NCBI GenBank assembly: GCA_964016885.1
Contig: OZ024742.1
Span: forward strand, 120,962,001-121,026,000
From: Eledone cirrhosa
Lineage: Eukaryota
Direction of reading: 5' to 3'
Length of the DNA: 64,000 nt
The notes under the pieces are model-generated. The model was not told where the DNA came from. It did not search any database and saw only the letters and a program-made list of their open reading frames with translations. Below, one piece after another: positions 28,565-64,000 of this stretch. Both the position numbers and the translations under genes were made by a program. Position 1 is the stretch's first letter. The number at the start of each line of letters is the position of its first letter.

Positions 28565-29360
28565 AATAATCCTCATCACCACTGTTTAATGTTTATTTTC
28601 CTTGCTTGCATGGGTTAGATGGGTTGTCATATTTTGAGGCTTGACTAATTAGATGAAAATGTCCTGCTCATAGGTTCCATTTTGGGTTTGGGTTCTATAG
28701 CTGGATGCCCTTCCTAATGCTAACCACTTTACAGTATCTACTGGGAACATTTTATCATGGCACTAGCACTATCATCTTATTGGGTGTACTGGGTGCTTTT
28801 GTTGTGATGTCAACACTACCGCCTTACACGTGGACTGGGTGCTTTTGTTGTGGCACCAGCACTACCACCTTAAGTATAGACTGGGTGCTTTTGTTGTGGC
28901 ACCAGCACTACCGCCTTACAGTATGGACTGGGTGATTTTGTCGTGACACCAGCACTACCACTTTACCGTATGGACTGGTGATTTTGTCATGACACCAGCA
29001 TTACCACTTTACAGTATGGACTGGGTACTTTTGTCATGATGTCAACACTACCGCCTTACAGCATGGATTAGGTAATTTTTTCGTGACACCAGCACTACCA
29101 CTTTACAGTATGGACAGGGTGCTTTTGTTGTGGCACCAGCACTACCACTTTACAGTGTGGACTGGGTGATTTTGTCATGACACCAGCACTACTACTTTAC
29201 AGGTGGACTGGGTACTTTTGTCATGGCACCAACACTACCACTTTACAGTGTGGACTGGGTACTTTTGTTGTGGCACCAGTGCTACCACTTTACAGTGTGG
29301 ACTGGATATTATGTTGTGGCACCAGTTATATTGCTTTACAGTGTGGACTGGGTGCTTTTA
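28565..29360 (-). mobile_element. RTE-tail SINE with internal ~44-bp unit expanded to about 14 copies
   Basis: Repeated ACTTTACAGTGTGGACTGGGTGCTTTTGTTGTGGCACCAGCACTACC-like units at 28725-29360. Confidence 0.8.
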
Positions 29361-32724: not shown

Positions 32725-33072
32725 TTTAAGGAACTCTTGGAGAAAACTGTTCCGGTTTCTTCTCTTTGGAATTAAATTTATTATATAATATAAATATAAA
32801 TTTAATAAATTAGATATATAATAAATTTAATATATAATAATAATAATGATGATTAAGTTAAAGATGTACATCCATATATGTATACTGAAATACTAGTATG
32901 TATATGAATACACACACGTATACATATGTAGATGTACCAAGTTTTTTCACTGGTCACTTTACTGTGAGTGGCCAGCTATTCTGTATGTAAACACACAGAC
33001 AAACCGGTTTTTAGAGTCATACTGGTTTTTGAGGAAACACCTTTCCTCTATTCTCCAGAAAGCCAGACAAGG

Positions 33073-33117
33073 AATATTGAACTAGTTTCGTTGTTGTTAC
33101 AACTCATCAGCAATATT
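33073..33117 (-). ncRNA. Minimal type I hammerhead ribozyme, copy 1
   Basis: AAUAUUG-CUGAUGA-GUUGU-AACA-ACAAC-GAAA-CUAG-UU|CAAUAUU. 7-bp stem I, 5-bp stem II, palindromic AACUAGUU stem III. Confidence 0.9.
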
Positions 33118-33539
33118 TACCTATCTTCCGGCCTCTCTAGAGAATCGTAAAAGCACATATCGTTATATGCTTTTTCTATGAAAATTAGTAGTGGGCAGAC
33201 TAATTTGCATAGAGTGTGAGTAAGTACCGGTTCAACGGAGACGATAAAAACAAATAACGAAACGAAATTAAATTTCGTTTCGTTTGTAACTCACTTTTGT
33301 ATGACTGACGCTTAAACAATTAAGTTAAAGATGTACATCCATATATGTATACTGAAATACTAGTATGTATATGAATACACACACGTATACATATGTAGAT
33401 GTACCAAGTTTTTTCACTGGTCACTTTACTGTGAGTGGCCAGCTATTCTGTATGTAAACACACAGACAAACCGGTTTTTAGAGTCATACTGGTTTTTGAG
33501 GAAACACCTTTCCTCTATTCTCCAGAAAGCCAGACAAGG

Positions 33540-33584
33540 AATATTGAACTAGTTTCGTTGTTGTTACAACTCATCAGCAATATT
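33540..33584 (-). ncRNA. Minimal type I hammerhead ribozyme, copy 2
   Basis: Identical to copy 1, 467 bp away. Confidence 0.9.
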
Positions 33585-33787
33585 TACCTATCTTCCGGCC
33601 TCTCTAGAGAATCGTAAAAGCACATATCGTTATATGCTTTTTCTATGAAAATTAGTAGTGGGCAGACTAATTTGCATAGAGTGTGAGTAAGTACCGGTTC
33701 AACGGAGACGATAAAAACAAATAACGAAACGAAATTAAATTTCGTTTCGTTTGTAACTCACTTTTGTATGACTGACGCTTAAACAAT

Positions 33788-33821
33788 TGAGTTGTAACAA
33801 CAACGAAACTAGTTCAATATT
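33788..33821 (+). ncRNA. 5'-truncated hammerhead at the inversion junction
   Basis: TGA-GTTGTAACAACAAC-GAAACTAGTTCAATATT; lacks the stem I 5' strand and CUGA. Confidence 0.8.
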
Positions 33822-34243
33822 CCTTGTCTGGCTTTCTGGAGAATAGAGGAAAGGTGTTTCCTCAAAAACCAGTATGACTCTAAAAACCGGTTTGTCTGTG
33901 TGTTTACATACAGAATAGCTGGCCACTCACAGTAAAGTGACCAGTGAAAAAACTTGGTACATCTACATATGTATACGTGTGTGTATTCATATACATACTA
34001 GTATTTCAGTATACATATATGGATGTACATCTTTAACTTAATTGTTTAAGCGTCAGTCATACAAAAGTGAGTTACAAACGAAACGAAATTTAATTTCGTT
34101 TCGTTATTTGTTTTTATCGTCTCCGTTGAACCGGTACTTACTCACACTCTATGCAAATTAGTCTGCCCACTACTAATTTTCATAGAAAAAGCATATAACG
34201 ATATGTGCTTTTACGATTCTCTAGAGAGGCCGGAAGATAGGTA

Positions 34244-34288
34244 AATATTGCTGATGAGTTGTAACAACAACGAAACTAGTTCAATATT
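34244..34288 (+). ncRNA. Minimal type I hammerhead ribozyme, plus-strand copy
   Basis: AATATTG CTGATGA GTTGT AACA ACAAC GAAA CTAG TT|CAATATT; predicted cleavage after 34281. Confidence 0.9.
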
Positions 34289-34596
34289 CCTTGTCTGGCT
34301 TTCTGGAGAATAGAGGAAAGGTGTTTCCTCAAAAACCAGTATGACTCTAAAAACCGGTTTGTCTGTGTGTTTACATACAGAATAGCTGGCCACTCACAGT
34401 AAAGTGACCAGTGAAAAAACTTGGTACATCTACATATGTATACGTGTGTGTATTCATATACATACTAGTATTTCAGTATACATATATGGATGTACATCTT
34501 TAACTTAATTGTTTAAGCGTCAGTCATACAAAAGTGAGTTACAAACGAAACGAAATTTAATTTCGTTTCGTTATTTGTTTTTAATAATAATGATGA

Positions 34597-34810
34597 TTTC
34601 TGATTTAGGCACAAGGCCAGCAATTTGGGGAGAGGGAAAAGTCGATTAGATTGACTCCAGTGTATTACTGGTGCTTTATTTTATTGACCTTGTAAGGATG
34701 AAAGGCAAAGTTAATCTCGGCGGGATTTGAACTCAGACAGTAAAGGGCTATAACTCTATGCTGCAAAGCATTGTGTCTGATGCTCTACCGACACTGCCTA
34801 TCCACTCCCC
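34597..34810 (-). mobile_element. Nin/Deu-type SINE whose A/T-rich tail received the retrozyme-like insertion
   Basis: Full-length match to 38206-38425 in reverse. Confidence 0.85.
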
Positions 34811-45340: not shown

Positions 45341-45630
45341 AACATATAAATTATACTACATATACTACATAAATTATACTACATATAAATTATACTACAT
45401 ATACTACATAAATTATACTACATATAAATTATACTACATATACTACATAAATTATACTACATATAAATTATACTACATATACTACATAAATTATACTACA
45501 TATAAATTATACTACATATACTACATAAATTATACTACATATAAATTATACTACATATACTACATAAATTATACTACATATAAATTATACTACATATACT
45601 ACATAAATTATACTACATATAAATTATACT
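45341..45630. repeat. 39-bp minisatellite (~7.4 perfect copies)
   Basis: Unit ACATATAAATTATACTACATATACTACATAAATTATACT. Confidence 0.95.
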
Positions 45631-45710
45631 AACAACACTCAATGTTGCTCAGAAAAGAGATGATTTAGCCAGTTGATAATTGCAATTCTGCATAAACATA
45701 TTATTATTCA

Positions 45711-63900: not shown

Positions 63901-64000
63901 CGCACCACACTATCATTACACACCACACTAACATTACACACCACACCAACATTACATACAACACTAACATTACACACCCCACTAACATTACACACCCCAC
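57908..64000. repeat. 18-bp minisatellite (>6 kb, runs off the window end) with variant units
   Basis: Consensus ACACTAACATTACACACC; occasional 19-bp units shift the frame; about 335 copies by length. Confidence 0.97.

Follow-up and report, generated by a model that had tools for sequence, protein, structure and literature searches.

Two-armed hammerhead retrozyme inserts in Eledone cirrhosa share two fixed outer ends and the end rule of Penelope-like elements

In the portions of the literature available to us, target-primed copying of circular RNA into tandem cDNA has been proposed for retrozymes (Cervera and de la Pena 2020, PMC7229834), and non-LTR retrozymes have been argued to be non-autonomous Penelope-like elements (PLEs) (Li, Clavereau and Pollet 2026, bioRxiv 10.64898/2026.07.22.740005). 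Type I hammerhead ribozymes with a 2-bp palindromic stem III are described as cleaving as dimers in tandem RNA and as being spared in monomer circles (PMC4209133). PLE insertions are reported to contain an inverted 5'-truncated copy, to carry a tail at one end and to target (TA)n (PMC3846280; PMC8557442), with target duplications of 8-10 bp (PMC3846280; PMC8557442; PMC11167929), and the way in which they make tandem or inverted insertions and a one-sided tail has been called undefined (PMC8557442). An Anolis PLE protein cuts and extends both target strands, with two internal start sites bounding the tail; in vitro, uncleaved RNA was its main substrate and the start site did not differ between strands (PMC11167929). 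The retrozyme life cycle has so far been a proposal. Here, we describe a retrozyme insert in Eledone cirrhosa and its relatives across the genome, which tie retrozymes to the PLE machinery through the insertion footprint.

A two-armed retrozyme insert and its ribozymes

The window, meaning the whole stretch of 64,000 nucleotides that was analysed (assembly GCA_964016885.1, contig OZ024742.1, positions 120,962,001 to 121,026,000), contains a young insertion of a hammerhead retrozyme, taken as non-coding, whose units are arranged in two head-to-head arms. Registers are counted from the base after the predicted ribozyme cut, and its parts are as follows.

32838..32854, plus strand: left copy of the target duplication, 17 bp at most, the last 3 nt common to the unit
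32852..33788, minus strand: left arm, registers 226 to 228 over two full units; its outer end is site B and lacks a tail
33057..33128, minus strand: type I hammerhead, predicted cut 33080/33079
33524..33595, minus strand: type I hammerhead, predicted cut 33547/33546
33788..33788, no strand: head-to-head inner junction, 1-nt overlap, registers 226 and 441, no fold-back
33788..34583, plus strand: right arm, registers 441 to 302; its outer end is site A and carries the tail
34233..34304, plus strand: type I hammerhead with a GUU cut triplet, predicted cut 34281/34282
34510..34583, plus strand: "tail" between sites B and A, at the right end only, holding a 29-nt hairpin at 34544-34572
34582..34598, plus strand: right copy of the target duplication, the first 2 nt common to the unit
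34599..34810, no strand: adjacent SINE-like repeat outside the element, its AT-rich edge being the target

The 467-nt unit (GC 35%) is repeated without a single difference in the window insert. The left arm, with its RNA sense on the minus strand, spans 937 nt (2 x 467 + 3), and the right arm, with its RNA sense on the plus strand, spans 796 nt or 1.70 units, base 33788 being common to both; this is the two-armed geometry that a preliminary description of the window had proposed. The outer ends lie at registers 228 and 302 and the inner ends at 226 and 441, so that neither outer end is the ribozyme cut site, also as proposed. The direct repeat of 17 bp, overlapping the unit by 3 and 2 nt, is present at 32838-32854 and 34582-34598 as a maximum length: it lies in a (TAA)n tract, and its non-element minimum is 12. 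The neighbouring repeat is termed SINE-like after the label that the preliminary description gave it. The further proposal that removal of the insert restores the tail of this repeat stands in part, as the rebuilt site resembles the AT-rich edge of other SINE-like copies, an edge that may be either tail or head.

The three complete hammerheads each matched Rfam HH9 with 37.7 bits (E 6e-6), a score below the Rfam gathering score of 52. As read from the sequence, the copy at 34233..34304 would form a stem I of 7 bp, a stem II of 4 bp and a stem III of 2 bp with a palindromic loop, and the hammerhead of the 467-nt unit comprises the full core and three stems. Its 2-bp palindromic stem III is the form treated in the available text of PMC4209133. 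The right arm contains one complete ribozyme and one partial copy starting inside the core, and the window insert holds four predicted cut sites in all (33080/33079, 33547/33546, 33814/33815 and 34281/34282). Across the family, the core is almost invariant and a stem II pair varies in a compensatory manner (52 T-A, 44 A-T and 1 broken); on this variation, selection seems to maintain the function of the ribozyme. The predicted circular fold of the unit has a z of about -10, which would be compatible with a circular RNA.

Elsewhere in the window are tandem arrays with periods of 71 bp (51998-56511, 98-99% matches), 18 bp (57912-64000, 337 copies), 39 bp (45342-45631, 100% matches) and 47 bp (28723-29359).

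Fixed outer ends, their pairing and the target site

Copies in the genome were located by exact sequence patterns, yielding 5,098 matches to a 36-nt ribozyme core pattern in the whole 3.0-Gb genome and 1,940 exact junctions between site A and (TA)n. The inserts studied, most of which lie in the initial 130 Mb of a single contig, comprise a ribozyme-anchored sample of all 27 loci behind the first 100 listed core matches, a site-A sample of 77 further matches among the first 100 listed for the site-A end pattern (of the 1,940 in total; 8 of the 100 were omitted), and added loci from two young subfamilies, one of them complete at 7 loci. The arrays are dispersed, multi-copy and without LTRs, and their target duplications are about 12 nt, longer than 4 bp. 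Sister families with a period of about 420-490 nt and related hammerheads, 67-81% alike over registers 144-383, were seen at L101:1390-1965, L084:2700-3264, L168:5059-6203 and L176:4178-6401; these too are situated in (TA)n, and some are two-armed.

Each of the 27 ribozyme-anchored loci has an outer end at register 301-304 (site A) or 228-234 (site B). Among 77 two-armed inserts, that of the window included, 67 pair one A end with one B end and none has A+A, B+B or a tail-to-tail arrangement; in the remaining 10, one arm is interrupted, truncated or incompletely covered. Most of the paired inserts were chosen by their site-A end, so the test there is of A+B against A+A. One of the 67 is a segmental duplicate: L126 and L127 are the same insert with its flanks, about 18 kb apart, and L127 is counted among the 77 paired inserts and omitted from the variant and cut-site stop counts. 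A short second arm of the complementary type was found in 10 of 37 single-arm rows. Sites A and B flank a perfect hairpin enclosed in the 69-74 nt between them, and this B-to-A segment varies less than any other part of the unit (0.010 vs 0.04-0.05 in most other regions). The outer-end layout is therefore a family rule and not a one-off. Two unusual arms were noted beside these, the left arm of L031:2948-7710, broken by a 4.8-kb sequence at registers 157-160, and that of L037:1000-1619, which ends at register 19 and runs into a tandem repeat of about 25 bp without reaching site B.

These fixed registers contradict the earlier idea that priming took place at arbitrary internal positions. It had also been suggested that the registers of other copies be compared for circular permutation as a sign of a circular template; the ends are not permuted and are fixed, which is the outcome that the preliminary description had named as refuting, with two sites instead of one, so the permutation test fails and permuted ends are ruled out as a sign of a circle. 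The start registers point to the Penelope machinery and are uninformative on the circle.

For the target, the shortest and longest possible duplication was read by eye at each site. In the 13 targets whose sequence was informative, a length of 12 nt suits every one and 17 nt suits 2. Pure (TA)n lies on both flanks in 42 of 75 A/B inserts, and most of the others have imperfect (TA)n.

Loci with a GIY-YIG domain are numerous in this genome (10,596 candidates), with RT plus GIY-YIG frames of up to 1,096 aa. In four PLE families, each of 12 head-to-head end pairs combines a tailed with a tail-less end, and 8 of these pairs lie at GIY-YIG loci; one further pair (L075), of tail-to-tail orientation, lacks the tail on both sides. 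The RT/GIY-YIG PLEs of this genome follow the same end rule as the retrozyme. Among 50 GIY-YIG loci of the 10,596 candidates, no helper PLE with a pLTR similar to the unit was found, the matches being independent retrozyme inserts, and a hammerhead, sought as a helper mark in the pLTRs of the same 50 loci, was not found. When 9 PLE loci were scanned with Rfam, the matches were all to miRNA and snoRNA families and repeat-driven.

Several individual PLE loci deserve description. Frames of 1,096 and 938 aa at L090:1775-5062 and L091:3809-6622 show similarity to RT and, at the C-terminus, to GIY-YIG; their flanking pLTRs end in (TA)n, and searches by pattern and with Rfam found no canonical hammerhead there. 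A long hairpin at 9567-9759 of the window, with spurious miRNA matches, looks by eye like a small head-to-head insert akin to the L091-family pLTR. At L121:453-4200, one insert between (TA)n flanks consists of a retrozyme arm ending at site A and, head-to-head with it, a second arm of 39 nt of retrozyme plus a 5'-truncated RT/GIY-YIG PLE with a tail-less end; the PLE part belongs to the L066/L088/L096 family (92-95%). This one case is possibly a two-RNA event that names a helper PLE family. At L135:467-3470, the right arm of a retrozyme joins the tailed 3' end of an L102-family PLE via a short palindrome, which may reflect a template switch or a nested insertion; as a single chimeric event it is ambiguous because both ends are of the tailed type.

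Priming on both strands and the nature of the template

The two arms of L114, L100 and L110 have no register in common, so neither arm can have been copied from the other and both were primed on RNA, in line with the earlier proposal that both target strands primed cDNA. Either arm may be the longer: a B arm can far exceed its A arm (14,317 vs 346 nt), and the opposite also occurs. The lengths of the two arms are weakly coupled (rho 0.28, p 0.02), and the inner registers come close to a uniform spread (p 0.10). Among the 62 inner junctions that could be resolved, an overlap is present in 41, the mean being 1.9 nt vs 0.75 simulated, and 21 have extra bases. The two arms of an insert usually carry the same haplotype, with at most one informative difference in 71 of 75 inserts vs 5% of control pairs, which fits one RNA or one source; L039, with arms of two haplotypes, is the clear exception. 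We hold double priming by the PLE machinery with high confidence.

The cut site is crossed by 54 of 67 A arms and 56 of 67 B arms, upholding the earlier statement that a linear cleaved monomer was not the template. In total, arms cross it 320 times and 7 stops fall within 10 nt of the cut where 7.0 are expected (L031, L136, L142, L152 and L164 were omitted from this stop count); no ligation scar was seen at the cut across the 320 crossings and no pile-up of inner arm ends there. Such crossing excludes cleaved linear monomers and still allows uncleaved multimers. Given double priming by the PLE machinery, we consider a circular RNA template fairly probable. Rolling-circle copying, as previously put forward, is retained as the likeliest reading on other evidence, its supposed sign of permuted starts being dropped.

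Part of that evidence comes from variation within arrays. Young arrays are near uniform over both arms (19.7 units with 0 differences; 38 units with 5 differences), array length does not increase with within-locus diversity (rho 0.04, n=85), and 43 deep arrays carry 34 haplotypes. The lack of excess stops or a scar at the cut and the near-invariant ribozyme core with its compensatory stem II pair also count in favour of a circle. On the RNA strand, A>G makes up 20 of 48 inherited (whole-array) variants, with 7 T>C, and 29 of 330 single-unit variants, with 37 T>C; the excess of A>G is significant for inherited vs single-unit variants (p 5e-8) and vs T>C (p 0.012). Cephalopods have strong A-to-I editing, and editing of a monomer that was then copied into every unit would leave this pattern. 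The A>G changes recur at sites 37, 111, 274 and 337-346. No clear ADAR neighbour preference was found at the A>G sites, and most A>G changes would give tolerated G-U pairs; selection on structure may therefore contribute.

The foremost alternative retains the same A/B double priming by the PLE machinery and places it on a linear multimeric RNA that comes from a tandem array and stays uncleaved, with long arrays maintained by DNA-level duplication and new haplotypes fixed via short inserts that later expand. Uncleaved RNA as the main in vitro substrate (PMC11167929) and the existence of source arrays of 24-38 units speak for it. So do variants repeated periodically in one arm only (L058, L111, L136, L164 and L178), which indicate DNA-level expansion, so that array length alone is no proof of rolling-circle copying and its use as such is weakened. 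Variants common only to the outermost unit of both arms in L130, L169 and L187 do not suit a monomer circle and would agree with gene conversion or a heterogeneous multimer; comparable outermost-unit cases, not matched by index, occur in L136, L159 and L169. In addition, no daughter in the complete 7-locus subfamily has a private variant fixed over several units. A linear multimer should, however, pass the unit-to-unit variation of its source to its daughters, and stops would at times be expected at a fixed RNA 5' end, whereas inner registers are spread almost evenly and do not gather at the cut. It also sits poorly with an A>G excess that belongs to whole-array and not to single-unit variants, and with a ribozyme apparently selected to keep working. 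We regard this alternative as a serious one that is nevertheless rather unlikely to be correct.

Locus-private variants were considered as proof of a single circular template and set aside, the three tested all being common to other loci. Two further patterns were recorded. Every second unit of L054:2411-4624 is changed at register 443 of the ribozyme core and in stem I, a two-unit period expected from a dimeric circle or from a dimer that was duplicated later. In L204:1373-3789 and L196:1265-5907, a single arm passes in register from a young haplotype to an older one.

Improbable by comparison is a single priming followed by fold-back or template switch onto the first cDNA, with the tail arising from endonuclease resolution, as outlined in the available sections of PMC3846280 and PMC8557442. 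At 11 of 77 junctions, where 5.1 are expected, the inner registers lie within 15 nt of each other and could reflect fold-backs, several of them at hairpins; the other 66, the window's among them, are not fold-backs, and both the arms without a common register and the freedom of either arm to be longer run counter to it. Still less credible is the mechanism first put forward for the window, twin priming of the L1 type that starts at chance positions inside a circularly permuted template: its head-to-head arms between target duplications match those of L1 in the available text of PMC2837659, but the starts are fixed in 27 of 27 loci, no end carries poly(A) and the second arm does not begin near the stop of the first. 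A fold-back chimera or misassembly is the least plausible, for although perfect inverted repeats assemble poorly, the window junction is asymmetric, the end registers are fixed, a target duplication is present and the layout recurs in 67 of the 77 two-armed inserts, some of them up to 12% diverged, so that the artefact, which the preliminary description had named as a refuting outcome, is very unlikely.

We infer, as the narrowly probable reading overall, that the arms are made by a borrowed PLE RT/endonuclease that primes both strands of one staggered cut, likely on circular RNA. Tandem transcripts would self-cleave as hammerhead dimers, and the monomers would be ligated to 467-nt circles. 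The PLE protein, probably a dimer, would bind the hairpin at registers 263-291 and cut AT-rich DNA, leaving 3' overhangs of about 12 nt, of which one would prime just 3' of the hairpin (A) and the other just 5' of it (B). Both RTs would then copy random lengths, passing round the circle if they run far enough, before the two cDNAs are joined end to end through microhomology of 0-5 nt, followed by fill-in. Some arms may lengthen later through DNA-level duplication. A bolder version, which we consider doubtful, is that Penelope integration is obligatorily two-ended (a dimer, one hairpin and 12-nt overhangs), with both RTs on one ribozyme-made circle and A-to-I edits copied into every unit; if it holds, RNA editing drives the heritable sequence change of the retrozyme.

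Comparison with known retrozymes, PLEs and L1

Like the metazoan non-LTR retrozymes in the available descriptions, the window family is built of tandemly repeated units that are a few hundred bp long and each contain a type I hammerhead, and it is taken as non-coding, with GC below 50%, no LTR, long target duplications and co-occurrence with PLEs. The two head-to-head arrays, the two fixed starts and their pairing are found here and go undescribed in the available portions of PMC7229834, which does not contain the word "inverted", and bioRxiv 10.64898/2026.07.22.740005. As set out in the accessible part of Li et al., the link to PLEs is co-occurrence and pLTR similarity, whereas here it is the insertion footprint, no pLTR similarity having been found among the 50 loci. 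A literature search over titles and the starts of abstracts, taking in few subscription papers and main texts without supplements, returned no paper on two-armed retrozyme arrays, a strict A+B rule or editing footprints in retrozymes.

With L1 twin priming, the retrozyme shares the priming by both nicked strands, the inverted arms between duplications and the short inner microhomology, according to the available sections of PMC2837659; in L1, however, this arises as a variant, one start lying at poly(A) and the other at a chance internal position, and in the retrozyme it is the rule, with both starts fixed and internal.

The closest likeness is to endonuclease-bearing PLEs, which in the available text of PMC3846280 and PMC8557442 show the same head-to-head inverted copy, one-end tail and (TA)n bias, and which also have two internal RT starts around a stem-loop and cut and extend both strands (PMC11167929). 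The retrozyme differs from them in having no apparent ORF, in a tail of 69-74 nt vs the 30-40 given for PLEs in those portions, and in arms that are both multimers running through the ribozyme site. The strict one-of-each pairing is counted here, while the PLE papers, in their accessible sections, call the tail optional and the start site in vitro did not depend on the strand (PMC11167929).

Collectively, the retrozyme is a known kind of element with the known PLE footprint in countable form, and the countable footprint favours obligatory two-ended priming. To this footprint, our analysis adds a count of how ends pair in RT-encoding PLEs, arms that do not overlap, the length of the stagger and a bias towards A>G. 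The family offers thousands of natural products that obey a countable rule (one A, one B, a stagger of about 12 nt and no stop at the cut site), which makes both the two-ended model and the choice between circle and multimer testable in vitro.
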